Source of the DNA: Candidatus Amesbacteria bacterium RIFOXYB1_FULL_44_23
Lineage (GTDB): Bacteria > Patescibacteriota > Microgenomatia > CAZETR01 > Amesbacteraceae
Direction of reading: 5' to 3'
Assembly (NCBI GenBank): GCA_001773775.1
Contig: MEXR01000048.1
Span: 1-38,251, forward strand
Length of the DNA: 38,251 bases
Shown here: piece after piece, positions 7,109-16,496 of the stretch
Position numbering within the stretch: position 1 is the first letter of the stretch
Layout of the letters: each line of letters begins with the position of its first letter
Notes under the pieces: model-generated
The model's input: only the letters and a program-made list of their open reading frames with translations
What the model was told of the DNA's origin: nothing
Database searches by the model: none
Translations under genes and position numbers: made by a program

Positions 7109-7246
7109 TGTGAGCTCACTGTACCACAGGTGGAACACCTACTCGAGAGCATTTTCAAAACCTACGAACGATTGAAAGAGCTTGGTTTTACCTACTATAA
7201 CGGCAAAATTGTAGTAATTGACGTTGAGGAGGTGGCTCATGAATAG
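7109..7246 (+). repeat. att-like boundary plus intact orphan tail, family 1
   Basis: GTGA-17nt-TGGAAC; startless frame CELTVPQVEHLLESIFKTYERLKELGFTYYNGKIVVIDVEEVAHE*. Confidence 0.75.
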
Positions 7247-8384
7247 TGATAATTCCTCACTTCAAATAGAAAAACGATGTGAATATGGTTATCATCCTAG
7301 AGGTAATACAATAAATAATATGTTAAAGGAATTAGCCAGTTATTCAGAATCAATTAAAGGTGCAATATTTCCAAGTAATGAACTAAGGTTTGTAAACTGG
7401 TATCTTCAGCATGGATGTGACTTAGATTGTTCCTATTGTAAAGTCCCGAAGCAAAAAATTGGGATTATGTCTCAAGGGGATCGAGATAGCGTTTTATTAA
7501 AAATTCGAAGTTTAAGTTCAAAACAGCCAATTATCAGTCTTTTGGGTGGAGAACTTACACTTCGACCAGATTTTTTAGTTGAAGCAGTTACTGATGCTGC
7601 AAACGTTGGATTTCTTGTTAATGTTGTCAGCAATGGTTGGGGATTAACACCTGATTTAATAAAAAAATTGAGTGCAGCTGGATTGCATTACCTAGGAATA
7701 TCCGTTGATAGTGATGAAAATTCTCTCAAACAAAATTTAGAAAAAGCATTATCACTTCATCGAACCACTCGAGAGATAGGTATTTTACCAGTAATAAATA
7801 CTGTTATCACAAAAGAAACAGATCCGGATACATTTATAAATTTTGCCACTAGGGTGATTAATACTGGTTGTTTTATTAGCCCACTGGCATGTTCCCCCGA
7901 AGTCCCTGGGGGTGTATTTTCCAGTGCATCAATCGACTCTGTGCCTACTCAAGAACAATTAAAAGAAATTGTCCCTTGGCTGGCAATGAAAAAACTCACA
8001 ACAGGTCTTGTTACTTCCAATCTAGGATACCTCTGGACACTTTATAATACCGGCGTATCGGGAGATAACGTTAAATTATGGCATTGCTCGCCACATTTTA
8101 GGTCAAAAAGTGAAACGAACGGAAGAGGGTCATTAACAATAGATTCAGACGGTCATATTGGTCCTTGCCAGGAATTTCCAAGAACTATTAATTTGTTAAA
8201 TTTGCCGCAAAGTCAGCTCTCACTTCAATTGTTAGATACCGCATTTGCACCAGTTACACAAAAATGTCCTGGATGTCTTTACAACTGTTACGTAATGGAA
8301 GAAGGAATTGGTGGTCCTCAACTTCTTGGAGAAATACCCACATTAATCCAAATGGCTAATATTAAGTCCAATAATCACAAATAA
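7239..8384 (+). CDS. radical SAM protein with C-terminal SPASM/twitch-like Cys cluster
   Basis: CDLDCSYC, GGE, SNG, ISVD, GPC and CPGCLYNC; start at 7239 (GGAGGTG upstream) or 7320. Confidence 0.85.
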   Translation: MNSDNSSLQIEKRCEYGYHPRGNTINNMLKELASYSESIKGAIFPSNELRFVNWYLQHGCDLDCSYCKVPKQKIGIMSQGDRDSVLLKIRSLSSKQPIISLLGGELTLRPDFLVEAVTDAANVGFLVNVVSNGWGLTPDLIKKLSAAGLHYLGISVDSDENSLKQNLEKALSLHRTTREIGILPVINTVITKETDPDTFINFATRVINTGCFISPLACSPEVPGGVFSSASIDSVPTQEQLKEIVPWLAMKKLTTGLVTSNLGYLWTLYNTGVSGDNVKLWHCSPHFRSKSETNGRGSLTIDSDGHIGPCQEFPRTINLLNLPQSQLSLQLLDTAFAPVTQKCPGCLYNCYVMEEGIGGPQLLGEIPTLIQMANIKSNNHK

Positions 8385-8470
8385 TTGCCGCCATCTGGGT
8401 ATGGAACTTTTTAGCCTTGAATTTTACGAACATAATTTATGACTAAAATATTTAGCCTTGAAAAGTTGAT

Positions 8471-8617
8471 TTGTGGGACAGCATTTCTGACATCGAACTA
8501 AAGCGTCAAGAAATCCTTCCTCTGCAATTTTACTACGACGACATAGATATTAAAATCCTCCACTACGCGACGAGTGCCAACGTATTTAAGCCTAGTTATC
8601 AAACTTTACAGGTATGA
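8471..8617 (+). other. left att junction carrying the displaced C-terminal tail of the recombinase
   Basis: Startless 49-codon frame L-WDSISDIELKRQEILPLQFYYDDIDIKILHYATSANVFKPSYQTLQV*, in the recombinase register across TTGTG. Confidence 0.7.
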
Positions 8618-9213
8618 GTAATAGTCTTGCAATTAAAACTACCAACGACGATTTTATAGAAAGGCACGTAACTGATAAGGTTTACCGTAAAATCGTTAAG
8701 GAACTATCGGCGGCCGAGGACACCAAAGGGCGAGGCAGGAAGCTAGAACTAACCGCCGAAAAACTTCACAACTTTTTATATTATTTATCCATCGGTGCAA
8801 ACTATAACTTAGCCTCGGAGGCGGCCCAAATCTCAGAAAGTACGCGCCAAAAATACATGGCAAGGTCAGAAGAATTTCGGCGGGTAGCCAGCCTGGCAAA
8901 AGAAAACCTTAAAATCATCGCTTTAGTGGCAATTTCGAAGGCTATGTTAGGAAGAAAACCAGGCTACTACCAATATATTCATCCTGTGACAAAAGAAGCG
9001 ATATACATTTTGGAAAAAGAAATCTCGCCCAACCTTAGAGCGTGCATGTGGTGGCTCGATAAAACGCGGTATTTCGAAGAGCGCCGAGAAGAAGGAAAGG
9101 AAAATAGAAGCCAACTAGGATACCCCCAGAACGAACGAGAGGCCGAACTACTGGAAATGGTATTAAATCGGCACTATGACTATGTGAGAAAAAGAGAGCA
9201 AGAAGATAAGTAG
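8614..9213 (+). CDS. HTH protein resembling phage terminase small subunit-like proteins
   Basis: LTAEKL..YLSIG.NY..ASEAAQISEST..KYM....EF and ACMWWLDK pattern, recognised by eye. Confidence 0.5.
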   Translation: MSNSLAIKTTNDDFIERHVTDKVYRKIVKELSAAEDTKGRGRKLELTAEKLHNFLYYLSIGANYNLASEAAQISESTRQKYMARSEEFRRVASLAKENLKIIALVAISKAMLGRKPGYYQYIHPVTKEAIYILEKEISPNLRACMWWLDKTRYFEERREEGKENRSQLGYPQNEREAELLEMVLNRHYDYVRKREQEDK

Positions 9214-9218
9214 TCGAA

Positions 9219-9686
9219 TTATTCTAATTCTGCTTTTAGCTTAGTGACGTACTCTAGTCTTTCTTCGGGTTTAGATAGAATACTCTTTTTAGTCATATTT
9301 TCGTTGTATAAATCGCCGTCGTAACGGGGGAAGATATGAAGGTGGTAGTGAAAGGCGTGCTGGTTTCCTGCTGGTTCGTTATTTTGTCGTAAAGTTGTGC
9401 CGTCACATTTGTAAGCCTTTTTCATGGCAAGAGCGATTTTCTGCGAAACATCGAAAACCCTATTCCCCACTTCGGGCGGTAATTCGTATAAGTTCTCGAA
9501 ATGGTCGTTAGGAACCACAATTACATGCCCCTTAGCAGTATCTATCCAGAAAGAGTTTATGTATACACTCACAAGCTCATCTTTGTAGACTAAGTCGGCC
9601 TGCTTTAGTAGGGTGTCATCGTTTTCAATTCCTTTTACGCCTAAACAAATAGGACACTTGTAGTTGTTAGGCGCGTGATTATGCAT
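9219..9686 (-). CDS. HIT family nucleotide hydrolase
   Basis: CPIC, GHVIVVP, HYHLHIFPR histidine triad. Confidence 0.92.
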   Translation of the reverse strand: MHNHAPNNYKCPICLGVKGIENDDTLLKQADLVYKDELVSVYINSFWIDTAKGHVIVVPNDHFENLYELPPEVGNRVFDVSQKIALAMKKAYKCDGTTLRQNNEPAGNQHAFHYHLHIFPRYDGDLYNENMTKKSILSKPEERLEYVTKLKAELE

Positions 9687-9731
9687 ATTTCGAGTTTAAC
9701 AATTTTAGTCGATAATTGCTATAATTCTTTC

Positions 9732-10313
9732 ATGAGAATCTATCTTATAAGGCACGGGCAGACCACGGGCGATATAGAAGACCGATACGGTGGAGATTAC
9801 GAAGACCATTTAACCGAAGAAGGCAAAGAACAAGGAAAAAATTTAGCTAATAAATTAGTCGATAAGAATATAGAGGTTGTTTTTTGCAGTCCTAGAATCA
9901 GAGCGCAAGAAACAGCAGAATTTATTAAGCGAAAAACTGGTGTGCTAGTCGAAGTTGTGGAAGATATTCGAGAAAGAAACCACTACGGCGTGATGACTGG
10001 CATGGTTAAGGCCGAAGCGAAACTTAAATATCCCATCCTAGTAGAACTTCTTAAAGACACAAAAAAGACAGTAGATGGGGGTGAAGACTACGAAACCTTT
10101 AAGAGCAGAGTTGTAGGCGCGTGGAATAACCTTACAAGTTCAGACCATAAAACGATAGCAATCCTCTCTCACGGTGGCCCTATCAGGCTTATTTTTAGGG
10201 AAATTCTAAATAAAGGGGAAATTAAAATCGGCGACTGCGCCTATGCTGTCATAGATACGGACGGTGAAGTTTTAAGTATAGCCGAAACAGACGGAATAGA
10301 AGTGCAAGAATAA
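9732..10313 (+). CDS. histidine phosphatase (phosphoglycerate mutase) family
   Basis: LIRHGQT, SPRIRAQET, SHGG; TATAAT 6 nt before ATG 9732. Confidence 0.92.
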   Translation: MRIYLIRHGQTTGDIEDRYGGDYEDHLTEEGKEQGKNLANKLVDKNIEVVFCSPRIRAQETAEFIKRKTGVLVEVVEDIRERNHYGVMTGMVKAEAKLKYPILVELLKDTKKTVDGGEDYETFKSRVVGAWNNLTSSDHKTIAILSHGGPIRLIFREILNKGEIKIGDCAYAVIDTDGEVLSIAETDGIEVQE

Positions 10314-10314
10314 G

Positions 10315-10336
10315 TGCGCCATGTGGCGCATATTTT
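10315..10336 (+). terminator. probable intrinsic terminator
   Basis: TGCGCC-ATGT-GGCGCA followed by TATTTT. Confidence 0.5.
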
Positions 10337-10357
10337 GTTAGAATATAGGTGTAAATT

Positions 10358-11335
10358 ATGAAGATAAAAATTGACGAATTAAAGCAACTAATGAAGACCG
10401 CTCTAACGAGTAAATACTACTCGCCAGAGGAAGCAGATTTAATGGTGGAAGTCTTTTTGCACGCCGAGCTTACTGGCAAAAATACGCAAGGGATTCTTAA
10501 ACTTCTAGGAACAGAGCCAGCGCAGGACATAAAACCCAAGCACCCGCCTAAAATAACAAAGGAAACTAATTTGTCTGTCCTAATTGACGGCGGCGGTGCG
10601 GCGGGGCCTCTTGTAGGGCAAATCGCCACAAATAAAGCGATAGAAATCGCCAAAAAGAACAACTTCGCAATCGTAGGCACGAACAATACCTTTTCCTCGG
10701 TAGGGGCAATCGGCTTTTATGCGCGTAAAATAGCTGATTCCGATTTAATTGGAATTGTCGCCGCGAGTTCGCCGCGTGGAGTACTTCACTTCGGCGGCAT
10801 TGACCCAGCTTACGGAACTAATCCGACAGCTTTCGGATTCCCCACAAACGAGTTTCCTATCGTTTTCGACATGGCCGCTTCTGCAATTACTTGGTATGGC
10901 CTAGTTAGAGCAAAAGCTTTAGGACAGAAACTTCCCGATAATGTCGCAGTAGATAAGGAAGGGAACCTTACCACTGACCCAGAAGAAGCCATGAAAGGCG
11001 CCATATTACCCTTCGACCGTTCGTATAAAGGTTCTGGCATGGCTATGGTGGTAGAGTTACTGGCTGGGCCTTTAGTAGGTGCCTCTTACGTACATGACAA
11101 TGGCGACTGGGGTACTGTTTTTATTGCTATTAACCCAGAATTACTTGTAGGCGTCGAGGACTTTAAGACTCATGCTTCCGACCTTGTTAAAAAGGTAAAA
11201 TCTGGCAGAACAAAAAATGGTGAGATAATTCACATTCCAGGGTACGATTCAGAGGCTACAAGGCAAACTATTTTAGATAGTGGCGAAATAGAAATGGAAG
11301 AAAAACTTATTAACGACTTAAAAGCAAAAATATAA
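10358..11335 (+). CDS. Ldh_2 family oxidoreductase (malate/L-lactate/ureidoglycolate dehydrogenase-like)
   Basis: GTNPTAF, FDMAAS, YKGSG, IPG motifs. Confidence 0.88.
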   Translation: MKIKIDELKQLMKTALTSKYYSPEEADLMVEVFLHAELTGKNTQGILKLLGTEPAQDIKPKHPPKITKETNLSVLIDGGGAAGPLVGQIATNKAIEIAKKNNFAIVGTNNTFSSVGAIGFYARKIADSDLIGIVAASSPRGVLHFGGIDPAYGTNPTAFGFPTNEFPIVFDMAASAITWYGLVRAKALGQKLPDNVAVDKEGNLTTDPEEAMKGAILPFDRSYKGSGMAMVVELLAGPLVGASYVHDNGDWGTVFIAINPELLVGVEDFKTHASDLVKKVKSGRTKNGEIIHIPGYDSEATRQTILDSGEIEMEEKLINDLKAKI

Positions 11336-11350
11336 AATCGGAGAATCTAT

Positions 11351-11968
11351 ATGTTAAATGAAAATTTCGTAATTGTAGGTACTTTAATAGGTGCGGTAGG
11401 TTCATTAGCCTATTTAATTGACACGGTAAAGGGAAAAGTGAAACCTAATAGGGTATCCTTTCTACTCTGGTCGATTGCGCCGTTTATAGCTTTTGCCGCA
11501 CAGATAAAACAGGGTGTAGGCTTAGAGTCGCTAATGACATTTAGCACGGGTTTTTTACCGTTTATTATCTTCTTAGCTTCATTCGTAAATAAAAAGGCTG
11601 AATGGAAACTAACGAGATTCGATATTATTTGCGGCGTTTTATCTATATTAGGCCTTATTTTATGGCTGGTAACTAGGGTCGGAAACATTGCGATAACATT
11701 TAGTATCCTGGCAGACGGACTTGCCGCAGTACCGACAATAATTAAAGCTTATAAATACCCAGATACAGAGATTGCCTGGCCCTGGATTGCTACCGCTTTC
11801 GGCGTAGTCCTCACCCTCCTAACGCTTGACGGTCTAACTTTCGCCAACTCTGGATTTATTATTTACATACTAATTGTAAACACCCTTATTTTCAGCCTAG
11901 TTCAGTTTAGAATCGGCGAAAAATTGGGATTTAAGTCAGAAGAAGAAGGCCCGTTAAGAGACAAGTAA
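11351..11968 (+). CDS. multi-pass membrane protein
   Basis: About 7 hydrophobic segments; KPNRVSFLLW and PTIIKAYKYPDTE loop motifs. Confidence 0.75.
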   Translation: MLNENFVIVGTLIGAVGSLAYLIDTVKGKVKPNRVSFLLWSIAPFIAFAAQIKQGVGLESLMTFSTGFLPFIIFLASFVNKKAEWKLTRFDIICGVLSILGLILWLVTRVGNIAITFSILADGLAAVPTIIKAYKYPDTEIAWPWIATAFGVVLTLLTLDGLTFANSGFIIYILIVNTLIFSLVQFRIGEKLGFKSEEEGPLRDK

Positions 11969-11974
11969 AATACG

Positions 11975-13447
11975 TTAGGCTTTAGAAGCAGACGGCTTAT
12001 TATCTTTCCTGGCGTCGATAAGTACGATGTTTTCTGCATCCGTTAAACCCAACCTTTTTAGAATATCCTGCACTCGCTTTAATTCCTTTAAGGTAAAGTA
12101 AATTATCACCTTAATGTTTTTATCGGTATCGTTGGCCTTTTCGTACACTCCTACCTGGTTTTGCAAATTTCTTTCTAATTGGGTATTAGTCGCAAGTTTT
12201 AGTTCGACCAAACTTTTATCGGCAGAGCCTTTAGAAACCTTTACGTCTACTGGGCCACGACCATTATTCACTTCGGTATTAAAGTCGAAGGTGGAACCGT
12301 ACCAGGTCAAGCGATAGGCTATTTTTAGGTCTTCCTCACGCCGTATAGGTTCTCCGTTAACGTAGAAGTACCTGTACCCGTCGTTATTTTCTATTACTGA
12401 CTTTAGGTACTGAACCCGCTGCATGGCTTCCTGGTAGGAGTCTGGGCTGGTTTTATAAAAGTCAGTCTTTTCGCCTAGAAGTAAGGCCAGAGCCTTAAAC
12501 TGCTCGGTATAGACCGTTTCAGAGAATGCCACTTTTTGCTCGCTAATGCTAGTCGCCCTATCGCCGTTATCCTCTTTACGCTTAATGTAATAATCAATTA
12601 GCTCTGGGAATTCGAGAATGGTCTTAATAGCCGCCTCTTTTTCATCCTTCCTTTTTGGCTCTTCGGGCAAGACGCTTTGGAAATAATTATTTACTTTCGC
12701 TCGTAATTCTTCGTTCGAAATTGCATAGGGAATGCTTGCAAATTCGTCTACCAGGTCGTCTTTATTTATCCAGGTTTCGTCCTTCGTAAGCATGTCTTTA
12801 GGAGTTAGAATTACAAAATCACCCTGGAAGCTAGGTAAATAATACCCGTCTTCTTCCCACGACTGGGTGTCATAGTTGAATCGTGCGCGGGGTACACGAA
12901 AATTACGGCAGAGCTTGGGGTCGAGATGTTTTTGTGCGAATACTTGGGTATATTGCAGTAGGTAGTCTTTTATGAGGTTTGTTGTAAAGTCGCTGATATT
13001 ATCTTTACCGACGCCATCTTTTATAAGGCACAACTTTTCTAAATGGGAACTTCTGGTAACTTTTTCCTGGCCGTAGTCGTTAAAAATTCTGGCGAAATTT
13101 TCATTTAATGCCCGCGCAAAATCATTACCTAGTGCGCTTCCCTTATTACCTTCTACCGAAAAGCCGAACCAGTTTTGCTCGACTTCCTTAAAACGATACC
13201 AGGCAGACAATAAGCCTTTGTTAATCGGTTGGGAAGTAGATTTATCACGCAAGAAACGCAGATAAGTAATTATCCCTTCGTGGAGTTGCTGGTACTCTGA
13301 TTTTTTGCTGTTAAAAAGCAGGAAGGGGTCAATAAAAAGAGGTAGGTCGGCGACCAGTGAAATATCGAACGCCCCGTAATCTTCTAGCGCCTTCTTACTG
13401 ATTCCGAAATAATCGGAAAATAATATCTTCGGCTGGTTATTTTCCAT
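11975..13447 (-). CDS. uncharacterised protein with C-terminal PD-(D/E)xK nuclease-like motif
   Basis: E..NGRGPVDVKV....LVELK...Q...Y; N-terminal DLPLFIDPFLLF. Confidence 0.6.
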   Translation of the reverse strand: MENNQPKILFSDYFGISKKALEDYGAFDISLVADLPLFIDPFLLFNSKKSEYQQLHEGIITYLRFLRDKSTSQPINKGLLSAWYRFKEVEQNWFGFSVEGNKGSALGNDFARALNENFARIFNDYGQEKVTRSSHLEKLCLIKDGVGKDNISDFTTNLIKDYLLQYTQVFAQKHLDPKLCRNFRVPRARFNYDTQSWEEDGYYLPSFQGDFVILTPKDMLTKDETWINKDDLVDEFASIPYAISNEELRAKVNNYFQSVLPEEPKRKDEKEAAIKTILEFPELIDYYIKRKEDNGDRATSISEQKVAFSETVYTEQFKALALLLGEKTDFYKTSPDSYQEAMQRVQYLKSVIENNDGYRYFYVNGEPIRREEDLKIAYRLTWYGSTFDFNTEVNNGRGPVDVKVSKGSADKSLVELKLATNTQLERNLQNQVGVYEKANDTDKNIKVIIYFTLKELKRVQDILKRLGLTDAENIVLIDARKDNKPSASKA

Positions 13448-13521
13448 AACATAGGACAGTTAAGTTATTATAACTCACCCAGGGTAACAATTTCATGCTA
13501 TTCTGCCGAAATTATTGCCAC

Positions 13522-13821
13522 CTACTGCGCTAATTTGCTTTCGATAAGTTCTCTAGCCTTCTTAGCGTCGTCGACTTTAATAAAGCCGCCTTCGAGTTTT
13601 TGGTCGCCAGTGCTATGGATGATAATTTTTGCCGCACCACCAGAGATAAACGGAATTTTTACCGCCTGAACTTTTAACTCTACCCCAGAAATGTTTTTAT
13701 AAAACAAGGTTTTAGAGTTATCTACGCCAAGCGCTTTAAGCTCTATAGCTACTCGGTCGTCATAAACGACTAAATGGCCGCCAGTACAGCGTGTCTTAAA
13801 TAATTGTTGCATTAGATTCAC
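13522..13821 (-). CDS. small beta-rich (PH-like) hypothetical protein
   Basis: 99-aa ORF preceded by AGGGGG; alternating beta pattern and terminal helix. Confidence 0.55.
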   Translation of the reverse strand: MNLMQQLFKTRCTGGHLVVYDDRVAIELKALGVDNSKTLFYKNISGVELKVQAVKIPFISGGAAKIIIHSTGDQKLEGGFIKVDDAKKARELIESKLAQ

Positions 13822-13882
13822 CCCCTTTCATAATTTTTAACCTTTAACTTAGGATTCTTATTTTTGCTGGGGGCTTTTCCAC

Positions 13883-14012
13883 AAAAAGCTCCCACCAGCG
13901 ATGGCTTGCGCCACCTGCTACCCTTTCGGATAACAGCCTCGACAGCGCTCTGGTAGGAGCTTGTTGCTGTCGAGGTCTTTGTGCCATGCCCCTTACGGGG
14001 TTTAGGCAACAC
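13883..14012 (-). ncRNA. candidate structured RNA of unknown family
   Basis: Four adjacent hairpins, three with GNRA loops (GUAA, GAAA, GCAA) on the minus strand, plus an alternative 13-bp helix ending in a U-tract. Confidence 0.6.
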
Positions 14013-14028
14013 TAGATTTTATTTAGCC

Positions 14029-14214
14029 TTACGGCTTAGTTGTACTATTCATTATTTTCTGTATGTCTGACAATTTGTATCGTCTATCCTTTCTCTTTCC
14101 TATTCTAACAGCGTTTAGACGGCCTTCGTTATCCCAACGTCGAAGCGTTTCGGGGTTTATCCCTAGTAGTTCGGCCGCTTCCCTAATTTTTATGAGTTTA
14201 CTATTATCATTCAT
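14029..14214 (-). CDS. MerR-like HTH excisionase / recombination directionality factor
   Basis: IREAAELLGINPETLRRWDNEG..R...RRY; divergent from the recombinase operon. Confidence 0.85.
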   Translation of the reverse strand: MNDNSKLIKIREAAELLGINPETLRRWDNEGRLNAVRIGKRKDRRYKLSDIQKIMNSTTKP

Positions 14215-14262
14215 AACTTCTATTAAATTATACTATAATAAACATACGAAAAGTAAAGAACT

Positions 14263-14667
14263 ATGAAAAATAAATCGGATAAGTACAAACTTCCCACAGG
14301 TGACGAATACGAAGGGCTTTTCAACCCAGAAGATTTAATGACCGTGTATTTCGTTAGGAATGGCGTCGGCTATAGGTGGGGTATTCCTTATAAAATTTTC
14401 GCTTCTAGTCGCTTCCAGGATATGAAGGAACCGTACGCAGATAAGGATTTAGTGGCGCTAGGCGGTGTTTTATTCGACATTTTAGTTATCGACAAGTATG
14501 CAATCGACTTCAAGCAAAAGACAGGCGTACAGAAGTTAAGCGTGGTCGTGAGGTCGTCCGAAACCGAGGATAAACAATTACTTCATAAACTGACGGGTAA
14601 GTTTCGAGAAAAAAGCGAAGTACTGAATAGAGATAGCATACCAGGAACTAATAAAGACCATGAATAG
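14263..14667 (+). CDS. hypothetical protein overlapping recombinase start
   Basis: 134-aa ORF with 8-nt overlap with the recombinase. Confidence 0.65.
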   Translation: MKNKSDKYKLPTGDEYEGLFNPEDLMTVYFVRNGVGYRWGIPYKIFASSRFQDMKEPYADKDLVALGGVLFDILVIDKYAIDFKQKTGVQKLSVVVRSSETEDKQLLHKLTGKFREKSEVLNRDSIPGTNKDHE

Positions 14668-16426
14668 TAAGCAAACAGTACCACTTCGGGCGGCAGTTTA
14701 CCTTCGGGTATCGACTGACGACCAGATAGAAAAATACGGCATTCCGCTACAAAAAGCGGCTGTAGACGCTGTAATTAACTCTAAAGGAAAGCTGGACGAC
14801 GGCTCGCCCGCTATGGTGCTTGCAGGAGAGCAATATATTTATAAGGACGAGGGTGTGAGCGGCGCTGACCCACTAGACGAACGACCAGCCTTTCTACGCA
14901 TGAAGGAAGATATAGAAAATGCGCCAGAGGGCGAAAAACCGTTCGATATTGTAGCCGTTTATCGAATTGACAGGTTCGCACGTAAGCTAAAAATTTTACT
15001 AGAGGTAATCGAATACTACGAAGCCCATGACATTCAGTTCATATCTGCCAATGAAAGTATCGACACTTCCACCCCGTTTGGTAAGGCTATGCTAGGTATT
15101 ATCGGCGTAATTGCCGAGCTGGAAAGAGAAACTACAAAAGCCAGAACCCAAGCTGGCAAAGTGCAAGCCATAGAACGAGGGGTCTATATGGGCGCACAAG
15201 CGCCTTATGGCTACCTAAAAGATAAGGACAAGCACCTACAAGTTTTTGCACCAGAGTCTAAAGTTGTCGAAGAAATCTTCGAATTGTTCGTATCACAGAA
15301 AAAGAATACCCAACAAATAGCAGACTACCTAGCTAGTAAGAAAATCCTTACCCCACTTCCTTCGGCAGTTCATTATGGAAAAAGACGAAAGGGACGCACA
15401 AAAGTTAACGACGAATACTTCTGGCGGGATTCTACCGTAAGAGGCATTGTTAAGGATGAAATATATCTGGGAATTTACTACTACAATAAGCACGAAGGAA
15501 AAAAACGCTTAGATAAATCACTCTGGAAAAAATCACCGACAGAACATGATTCCATTATCGACTATGGCACCTTTAGCATGGCCCAACAGCGTATTAAAGA
15601 AGATGTGGCCTTACGTAATAGCGCTAAAGCGGTCGAAAACCACTTATACCTACTATCTGGCCTCTTAAAATGCCACGCATGTTACGACCCATATTCTGGT
15701 CGCGACCCACTAAACTGGTCTGGTACAAGTAAGGTTATAAAGAAAAACGGCAAACGTGCCTACTACTATCATTGTGGGGCTAAAAACTCTAAGAAATACT
15801 CGACTGTGTGTAAAGCAATTCCATTCCCAGCCGATGAAATAGAAGCATTCGTTACCCAGTTTATTAAAGACTTGCTAAGCGACCCAGAGAACGTCTACAG
15901 GCATATTAACACGTTGCAATCTACGAAAATGGATAAAAGGAAGCTCCTAAAAAGACAGGTAGATATAACAAAAATGTTAAATCGAATACCTGGTAGCCGC
16001 CAGAATATAAAGCGCATGTACGGCAAAGGAGACATTACCGACGCAGACTACGACGAAAGAATGGCTAATGTTAAAAAGCAGGAAGCTGATTTAAGGAAAG
16101 ATTTATTAGTAATACAGGGACAAATCGGCGAAGATAAAATCTCGGAAATTTATGCTAGTACCTTTAAGCTGTTCGCGAAAAAATACAAGCCTTTCCTAGA
16201 CGGCCTAATGACCGACAGGCAGGAAGTATCCGACCTAATTCACCTTATTGTCGACAGAGTTAACGTTTATACGCGAAAAGCAACGAAAAAAGACAAAATC
16301 GCAGGCCGAAAAAAGGAAGACCAGGTAATCCCATACCAGGTGAGGATAGATTTACGCTTGCCGCAAGACATTATGCAACGCCTAGCACGGCAAGGTAAGT
16401 TCGAAGTCAGAAACGATAACTTGTGA
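14660..16426 (+). CDS. large serine recombinase (integrase)
   Basis: YLRVST catalytic Ser, DEGVSG, RP, DRFAR, APYGY, Zn-ribbon LLSGLLKCHAC...YYHC, coiled coil. Confidence 0.95.
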   Translation: MNSKQTVPLRAAVYLRVSTDDQIEKYGIPLQKAAVDAVINSKGKLDDGSPAMVLAGEQYIYKDEGVSGADPLDERPAFLRMKEDIENAPEGEKPFDIVAVYRIDRFARKLKILLEVIEYYEAHDIQFISANESIDTSTPFGKAMLGIIGVIAELERETTKARTQAGKVQAIERGVYMGAQAPYGYLKDKDKHLQVFAPESKVVEEIFELFVSQKKNTQQIADYLASKKILTPLPSAVHYGKRRKGRTKVNDEYFWRDSTVRGIVKDEIYLGIYYYNKHEGKKRLDKSLWKKSPTEHDSIIDYGTFSMAQQRIKEDVALRNSAKAVENHLYLLSGLLKCHACYDPYSGRDPLNWSGTSKVIKKNGKRAYYYHCGAKNSKKYSTVCKAIPFPADEIEAFVTQFIKDLLSDPENVYRHINTLQSTKMDKRKLLKRQVDITKMLNRIPGSRQNIKRMYGKGDITDADYDERMANVKKQEADLRKDLLVIQGQIGEDKISEIYASTFKLFAKKYKPFLDGLMTDRQEVSDLIHLIVDRVNVYTRKATKKDKIAGRKKEDQVIPYQVRIDLRLPQDIMQRLARQGKFEVRNDNL

Positions 16427-16496
16427 CTCCACGGGGACTCGAACCCCGGTTACCAGGATGAGAACCTGGTGTCCTAGACCGCTAGACGATGGAGCC
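16424..16496 (-). tRNA. tRNA-Glu (anticodon CTC), CCA not encoded
   Basis: GGCTCCA/TGGAGTC acceptor stem, CCAGG-TTCTCAT-CCTGG anticodon arm, GTTCGAGT T-loop. Confidence 0.95.

Follow-up and report, generated by a model that had tools for sequence, protein, structure and literature searches.

Does an integrase gene whose stop codon is made of transfer RNA (tRNA) bases end there by nature, or has part of its coding sequence been left elsewhere? The question arises for a large serine recombinase gene carried by an integrative element of ~7.95 kb (8474-16423) in the window, by which we mean the whole 38,251-nucleotide stretch analyzed, contig MEXR01000048.1 of assembly GCA_001773775.1 (Candidatus Amesbacteria bacterium RIFOXYB1_FULL_44_23, positions 1-38,251 of the forward strand). 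The answer that we favor, with a probability of about 0.8 on the sequence comparisons described below, is that the gene was split by integration of the element, and that a 47-codon tail now found at the far end of the element would be translated from the circular form as the C-terminus of the integrase.

In this mechanism the recombinase would have inserted the element at the extreme 3' terminus of tRNA-Glu(CTC), separating the discriminator from the base that follows it. Its attP site would lie inside the 3' coding end of its own gene, int, with the P arm forming the last 9 chromosomal codons and the P' arm the first 9 of the 47. Integration would cut the natural C-terminus away, leaving the 47-codon segment 7.9 kb off at the other end of the element, and the remaining int open reading frame (ORF) would run into the antisense tRNA and meet an immediate TGA, giving a product of 588 residues. 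Excision to a circle would rejoin int and give one of 635 residues.

The integrase gene and the ends of the element

By every sequence feature tested, the product of 14660-16426 is a large serine recombinase. It contains a resolvase domain (PF00239, expectation value (E) 2.6e-31, residues 11-175), a Recombinase domain (PF07508, 2.7e-18) and a Zn_ribbon_recom domain (PF13408, 1e-8); the catalytic residues R16 and S18 are unchanged across 26 homologues, and the nearest solved relatives are the TP901-1 integrase, another integrase and SPbeta SprA. The AlphaFold2 model of the 588-residue form (mean predicted local distance difference test score, pLDDT, 81) shows the expected domains followed by a β-hairpin and a helix, with long helices at 409-490 after the zinc ribbon forming the coiled coil. 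The last residues, 578-588, are modeled with low confidence, which fits a segment that would serve as a linker into the missing tail.

The 3' end of this ORF reads ...GAT AAC TTG TGA. T16424 complements discriminator base A73 of tRNA-Glu(CTC), the one tRNA that ARAGORN found in the window, and the two bases after it, G16425 and A16426, complement C72 and U71, the latter in a G2.U71 wobble. The integrase stop codon therefore consists of tRNA bases, as an earlier, sequence-only reading of this DNA had held when it traced the stop to the antisense 3' end of a tRNA. The tRNA gene itself is left whole by the insertion. A recoded TGA was considered and rejected, since frames of at least 150 codons under translation table 11 cover 31,929 of the 38,251 bases and 7 of these 33 frames end on TGA.

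From 8471, at the left end of the element, the sequence is TTG TGG GAC, and the frame stays open for 48 codons (the TTG and 47 more) to a TGA that overlaps the ATG of the next ORF. Only five bases, TTGTG, are common to both ends. Serine integrases leave no long direct repeat, and their attP consists of two imperfectly inverted arms, so the shared TTGTG alone proves nothing. When the ends were joined in silico, as the sequence-only reading had proposed, an attP with an imperfect inverted repeat did emerge: the 26 bases to the left of the 16423/16424 step can pair with the 26 to the right of the 8473/8474 step at 18 of 26 positions, 15 of them among the outer 16. The repeat is centered on the GT step of the shared core. 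As a control, the P arm was paired with every position of the window on either strand (76,450 in all), and only three scored 18 or more, the highest 26. Among the 76 TTGTG sites in the window, that at 8471 scores best with its 18, the runner-up reaching 11.

Two further lines of evidence place the ends at the same bases. In four related elements, at loci designated L007, L009, L022 and L024, the DNA matches the window from the TGG onward and not before it; likeness stops within 8448..8473, the flanks of all five elements being unrelated up to the base before the TGG. In addition, contigs from two public sequencing runs diverge from the window exactly at 8473, and one such loose end is the L007 flank. 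Because the attP symmetry, the break points of the relatives and the divergence of these contigs agree, we define the element as 8474-16423 with the crossover at GT. The junction geometry seen at 16423..16424 recurs in 15 elements, the pair being GA where the target is tRNA-Gly. An island of deviating composition was also considered and rejected, the guanine-plus-cytosine fraction being 0.40-0.45 inside and 0.37-0.47 outside.

A conserved coding segment beyond the crossover

The tail was compared across the window's group of five elements, namely that of the window and the four relatives named above. All five tails are 47 codons long. Over the first 34 codons the variable sites number 3, 3 and 15 at the three codon positions (binomial P = 4e-4 for at least 15 of 21 at one position), and of the variable codon columns 10 show synonymous differences only and 7 alter the residue, for the most part conservatively (I/M/L, D/E, D/N, Y/F). 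The tail frame is the sole stop-free frame of six, the other five holding stops in all five sequences. The last 13 codons vary at every codon position, yet the length remains constant. Between the window and L007, whose integrases are 79% identical, the 34-residue core of the tail is identical at every residue (34/34). This pattern of change indicates that the tail is under purifying selection at the level of the protein.

The codon before the first W of the tail is TTG, CAG, TTG, TTG and TGG in the five elements; it belongs to the host flank, and there is no conserved start codon. Given that the conserved coding segment begins exactly at the crossover and without a start of its own, the tail is best read as the continuation of the integrase gene, and because it is under protein-level selection without its own start codon, it would have to be translated as the integrase C-terminus from the circle. 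The startless frame that the sequence-only reading had noticed across the shared core of the left end thus stands as a conserved coding tail with no conserved start, and with its crossover at the GT.

Conservation of the left end might instead act on the DNA only, as an attP arm together with promoter or binding sites, the open frame being incidental. The first 26 bases are by symmetry an attP arm, and conservation of the first 9 tail codons would follow from this. Past the arm, however, the changes are mostly third-position and synonymous, an amino-acid motif persists between elements with integrases only 40-45% identical, and the frame is the single open one of six in all five relatives, which makes an effect on DNA alone very improbable. 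A second possibility is that 8471-8617 is a separate small gene or leader peptide, starting at TTG 8471 and coupled to the gene for a 199-residue protein that follows it rather than to the integrase. A TTG precedes the W in the window, L009 and L022, where a separate 48-residue peptide is possible, a point that tells against the split gene, and in the same three elements the stop overlaps the next ATG as ATGA. This preceding codon is nevertheless host flank, being CAG in L007 and TGG in L024, and the residue before the tail in database proteins is W, L, G, Q, L, M or L. The tail is, moreover, in frame with int in 21 elements despite a crossover that falls in all three codon phases. We regard a separate gene as improbable.

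Those 21 elements come from a survey of loci related to the split integrase. Among 8000 candidates scored, 873 integrase relatives were found at E <= 1e-3, and a set of 33 loci with integrases at least 39% identical was drawn from metagenomes and species-representative genomes. In 28 of the 33, ARAGORN placed a tRNA in antisense orientation where the int ORF ends, the targets comprising 11 tRNA species (Glu-CTC, Glu-TTC, Ile-TAT, Arg-TCG, Lys-CTT, Lys-TTT, Val-TAC, Ala-TGC, Gly-TCC, Gly-CCC and Leu-CAG). Three of the other five run into tRNA-like sequence (a contig end or an ARAGORN miss), one contig ends too early, and L010 is without a tRNA. Left ends were sought by setting the crossover beside the discriminator base and then scanning the upstream DNA for a partner arm in which the central dinucleotide was the same. 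A clear left end was found in 14 elements, where the frame continued from the integrase is open for 28-96 codons, and L044 provides a further left end with a partly masked tail. A profile of the 14-element tails found 8 more tails; L022, L032, L033, L034, L041 and L049 have both junctions, in frame, and L102 adds one more in-frame tail, which brings to 21 the elements with a tail in frame with int across the junction.

The crossover falls in codon phase 0, 1 or 2 according to lineage, and the frame is always kept. Beyond the attP arm the tails follow a motif of approximately YPL..LTY.DID..I.RIG, common to elements with integrases 40-47% identical. When a profile leaving out the window's group was compared with all six-frame segments of the window, the window's tail came out on top, at E 0.06 versus 1.3 for the next. 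Where both ends are mapped, the elements are 4.3-11.4 kb long, and elements that are nearly identical sit in different tRNAs. On this survey the split-integrase architecture is a property of the integrase family in small-genome (Patescibacteria-type) bacteria. The sequence-only reading had also predicted that circularization would swap the stop for a 47-residue extension, and the 21 in-frame relatives together with the third-position changes lend that prediction support.

Some related loci show further features. The survey of viral contigs returned two, L102, which has an in-frame tail and no tRNA after int, and L103, which reads into tRNA-Val. In L102 (5631-9948) and L010 (2791-2830) int is followed by no tRNA, and GGAACC stands at 22-27 from the junction, near the attP-type spacing; L102 also holds a second tail-type end at 2336-2542, in opposite orientation and with no second integrase on the contig. 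Possible causes are a target other than a tRNA, nesting of elements, or rearrangement of the ends. At L037 (4474-4570) and L045 (4349-4455) the integrated copies seem frameshifted in the last 30-40 codons of int, for which decay or assembly error is possible.

In protein databases the tail is carried by six short proteins and one of 390 residues, with similarity beginning at the W of WDSISD and unrelated residues before it. No usable match to the tail was obtained in ESM Atlas, Pfam or PHROGs. A complex prediction for integrase residues 320-588 with the tail gave a score of 0.24 (mark 0.32), which tells neither for nor against their association. Host ORFs at some insertion sites read across attL into the tail (P0129, of 390 residues, and P0125 and P0126), which gives a chromosomal protein a chimeric C-terminus. 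P0128, a repeat protein of 1880 residues, matches tail residues 24-46 in 14 stretches (E 3.7e-9), in what may be a compositional match.

Gene content and the two proposed states of the integrase

The positions of all features are collected in Table 1. The core of the window's group consists of the tail, the 199-residue protein, the 61-residue HTH_17 protein, the 67-residue and 134-residue ORFs and the integrase. Serine integrases recombine attP with attB and depend on a directionality factor to recombine attL with attR. From its family matches the HTH_17 protein is a candidate for such a factor, for an excisionase or for a regulator. Family searches of the core genes revealed no recognizable replication gene. 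The HIT, histidine phosphatase, Ldh_2 and 205-residue genes (9219-11968) were not found in L007, L009, L022 or L024 and belong to the window's copy only. At 13579-13932 the public runs hold contigs of lower depth with many base differences, and the same samples seem to contain variant copies of the element. The gene to the left of the element (7218-8384) encodes a radical SAM protein (Pfam, 4.6e-15) whose longest ORF starts with TTG; it ends 87 bases before the crossover and is left untouched by the insertion.

Table 1. Positions of the element's ends, its genes and the target tRNA in the window (aa, amino acids)
Feature	Position	Strand	Evidence or remark
B arm of attL	8448..8473		In the unoccupied site, the chromosomal sequence that follows the tRNA; final base is the G of the GT crossover pair
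Left central GT, inferred crossover	8473..8474		Symmetry center of the in-silico attP; same dinucleotide at 16423-16424
P' arm of attP	8474..8499	+	Complementary to 16398-16423 at 18/26; encodes the first 9 tail codons
Proposed detached last 47 codons of the integrase gene (WDSISDIELK...QTLQV)	8474..8614	+	Stop TGA 8615-8617; conserved from the crossover onward
199-aa core gene	8614..9213	+	Weak helix-turn-helix match; PHROG terminase-small-subunit-like region, E 1.5e-4; in L007, L009, L022, L024
HIT protein, cargo	9219-9686	-	Pfam
Histidine phosphatase, cargo	9675-10313	+	Pfam
Ldh_2 dehydrogenase, cargo	10358-11335	+	Pfam
205-aa ORF, cargo	11351-11968	+	ORF
490-aa protein phrog_30194	11975..13447	-	E 1.1e-35; among the four relatives in L009 only
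99-aa ORF	13522-13821	-	No family match; matches L022 and L007
64-aa ORF	13818-14012	-	No family match; matches L022
61-aa HTH_17/MerR-type protein	14029..14214	-	Pfam HTH_17, 5.5e-11; PHROG excisionase families; in L007, L009, L022, L024
67-aa core ORF	14063-14266	+	No family match; in L007, L009, L022, L024
134-aa core ORF just upstream of int	14263-14667	+	No family match; in L007, L009, L022, L024
Large serine recombinase gene (integrated, shortened form, 588 aa)	14660..16426	+	Pfam domains, homologues, AlphaFold2 model
P arm of attP	16398..16423	+	Inside the last 9 codons of int
Right central GT	16423..16424		Complement of discriminator A73 and the adjoining base
tRNA-Glu(CTC), target gene	16423..16496	-	ARAGORN; acceptor stem and T arm are the B' arm; 16424-16426 are the integrase stop

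Several results weigh against a split gene that is rejoined in a circle. The attP and restored attB junctions for which the sequence-only reading had called did not appear: assembled contigs of four public runs, from which rare forms are dropped, held no 16423-to-8474 or 8473-to-16424 joint, and the loose ends listed at 16421-16424 lead elsewhere, none of them resembling the window's left flank. The genome holds a single copy of each element end. A search for the empty site with the left-flank DNA in 41 genomes, none of them a same-genus relative of the source genome, returned only the window itself and four stretches of 24-30 bases. The fused protein, integrase plus tail, was found neither when the tail was compared with 1.84 billion representative proteins nor when the tail and the tail alignment were compared with longer proteins; these searches returned only short ORFs, the 390-residue P0129, which is not an integrase, and P0128.

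The tail is likewise carried by none of the 120 database integrases examined (the query and its 119 best homologues, the best 120 of the 873). These proteins end at the equivalent L or continue as W..RDSNP-like peptides, which are translated antisense tRNA T arms; a pattern match on C-termini flagged such antisense-tRNA-like tails in 28 of the 120, and integrated ORFs tolerate arbitrary read-through of this kind up to ~100 residues. We attribute the lack of tails to all 120 being integrated copies, whose own tails would sit at the other end of their elements. The homologue comparison proposed by the sequence-only reading gives no tail among the proteins, and tails in place at the far end of the relatives' own elements.

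Within the survey, the profile built without the window's group is weakly significant, and in L032 and L049 the accepted junction is the tRNA discriminator position and not the top symmetry score, which is a choice. A tail was not found in L029, L037, L038, L043, L045 or L047, and L103 shows no clear one. In four genomes of another bacterial family, taken as an out-of-sample set (L184-L187), there was no tail and no convincing left end, and extending the search farther upstream in two of them (52 kb in genome G394) still gave neither. In the subgroup formed by L184-L187 and L103 at tRNA-Val(GAC), int ends ...DGWW and the tRNA follows; these elements may be larger, decayed or domesticated. The tail profile had no match at E <= 1 in 140 loci of distant serine recombinases (~1.9 Mb), and hence no unsplit, ancestor-like form was found there.

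If the split gene is accepted, circles would form, the long form would carry out integration, the short form would be what the integrated copy can make, and the tail may affect activity, direction or stability. Because selection acts on the tail and nearly identical elements are found in different tRNAs, the circular state would be visited often, which favors an active short form without proving it. From here an isoform switch is a tentative proposal, possible in our view although not one to be counted on: the long integrase of the circle would favor or permit attP x attB recombination, and the tail-less form would excise, alone or with the 61-residue HTH_17 protein. Were this so, the direction of recombination would be encoded in the topology of the element, and the enzyme made would always match the reaction available.

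Integration may, however, be one-way or "suicidal", in the manner of SSV, with a tail that is needed for activity, a short form that is inactive, and excision only when full-length integrase is supplied in trans. This reading accepts the split gene and denies the two-isoform switch. It can draw on the precedent of SSV-type elements as a review describes them (PMC8371274), on a tail core that is better conserved than the rest of the protein, on the tolerance of integrated ORFs for arbitrary antisense-tRNA tails, and on the integrated copies at L037 and L045, which seem frameshifted near the 3' end. It sits poorly with a shortened protein that keeps every catalytic and DNA-binding domain, and with a core in which a purely episomal life is not evident, there being no recognizable replication gene. 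Selection on the tail and the presence of near-identical elements in different tRNAs also imply a frequent circle, and a frequent circle requires excision from integrated copies. We consider one-way integration unlikely, if only slightly less probable than the switch, while giving it more weight than the readings that leave the tail outside the integrase.

For serine integrases, how direction is controlled is the main question both in practice and for mechanism. Two natural isoforms distinguished by a tail alone, one belonging to the integrated and one to the excised state, would open it to direct experiment. There is also a consequence for annotation: the integrase copies in databases would be truncated forms, 28 of 120 flagged with spurious antisense-tRNA-like tails, and the true integrase C-termini would appear, if at all, as orphan small ORFs kilobases away.

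Target recognition and comparison with known systems

The four half-sites of 15 elements were aligned by distance from the center. P and P' share the pattern ..TTT....CCcGAACT, with GAAC at positions 22-25. The B' half-site, which lies in the tRNA, follows GGGA.TCGAACC, with GAAC at 18-21 and TCGAACC at 16-22, and its GAAC is the antisense of G53-T54-T55-C56 in the T loop and stem. The B arms, downstream of the tRNA, have only CAaa next to the center in common across the 15 elements. The GAAC motif is therefore 4 base pairs (bp) closer to the crossover in the bacterial half-site B' than in the attP arms, and in a study of the Listeria integrase (LI) the zinc-ribbon motif is described as 5 bp nearer the center in attB (PMC3783163). 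We infer that the zinc-ribbon domain may read the universal T loop as the outer motif of the B' half-site. The shortened protein has KF(G/E)V at its end and the tail has the mirrored motif (Y)PEL or IEL at its start; the two would be the two attP arms read as codons.

Reading of the T loop would allow one family to use many tRNA genes and, if it does serve as the outer attB motif, to move between them. Target recognition of this kind, in which one family uses at least 11 tRNA species and apparently finds them by their invariant T loop, would be unusual, and the family could offer an integration tool for organisms without genetics, including the uncultured small-genome bacteria that carry it.

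The element resembles the large serine recombinase systems (A118/LI, Bxb1, phiC31, TP901-1 and SPbeta SprA) in the domain order of its enzyme (resolvase, recombinase, and zinc ribbon with coiled coil), in an attP of ~50 bp with imperfect inverted arms and a 2-bp center, in the lack of a long direct end repeat, and in an outer motif that is nearer the center in the bacterial half-site, by 4 bp here and by 5 bp for LI integrase. It differs from them in that attP lies in the coding end of the enzyme itself, so that the product would depend on the state of the DNA, and in that it targets the 3' ends of many different tRNA genes. To our knowledge, the serine integrases studied have attP in non-coding DNA beside int and a single protein-coding or intergenic target. 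One streptococcal mobilizable element with a serine integrase, IME_Spy2096_SNF2, has been reported with its recombination site "within the integrase gene" (PMC5357655). It targets snf2 and not a tRNA, and the passage that reports it (PMC5357655) gives no analysis of a conserved detached tail or of isoforms. That one sentence of PMC5357655 is all that our full-text literature search found on att sites inside serine integrase genes, and nothing was found on serine integrases that target tRNAs and have a split gene; the supplements of PMC5357655 and PMC10083194 may list more serine integrases with in-gene att sites.

In its gene architecture the element is closest to the SSV-type tyrosine integrases of archaeal viruses and plasmids, which carry att inside the integrase gene, target tRNA genes and are split on integration, an arrangement that the review cited above calls exclusive to archaea (PMC8371274). 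The element is bacterial, and only serine recombinase domains were found in its enzyme. The outcome of splitting differs as well: the SSV gene is described as yielding two inactive fragments, Int(N) and the catalytic Int(C) (PMC8371274), whereas the present family loses only its last 28-96 codons. A design held to be exclusive to archaeal tyrosine recombinases (PMC8371274) would thus extend to bacteria and to an unrelated family of enzymes. The sequence-only reading was right that in-gene att sites are known for some tyrosine integrases, such as that of SSV1, and the novelty for the serine family, which it had wanted checked, has to be narrowed, the streptococcal case being already in print.

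A change of C-terminus by integration has a parallel in mycobacteriophages. In integration-dependent immunity attP lies in the repressor gene, integration alters the C-terminus of the repressor, and with it the behavior of that protein, and removes a degradation tag, and the integrase is a tyrosine recombinase. As in the element, attP is inside a gene (reported for BPs and its relatives in PMC4557955 and PMC3694055) and integration changes the C-terminus of a protein, the gene split being that of the repressor in the phages and that of the integrase here. Islander-type islands resemble the element in another respect, in that the 3' part of a tRNA is the target and the integrase gene adjoins the tRNA, as they are described in PMC4383910. 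Islander islands use tyrosine integrases, restore the tRNA from a copy on the island and keep the displaced tRNA fragment as a direct repeat; the element, in contrast, has a serine recombinase, one tRNA in the window, only 5 bases shared between its ends, and a tRNA that is never split. Set beside these systems, the element appears to combine a serine integrase with a gene architecture that is in print mainly for an unrelated family, and with a distinctive choice of target.

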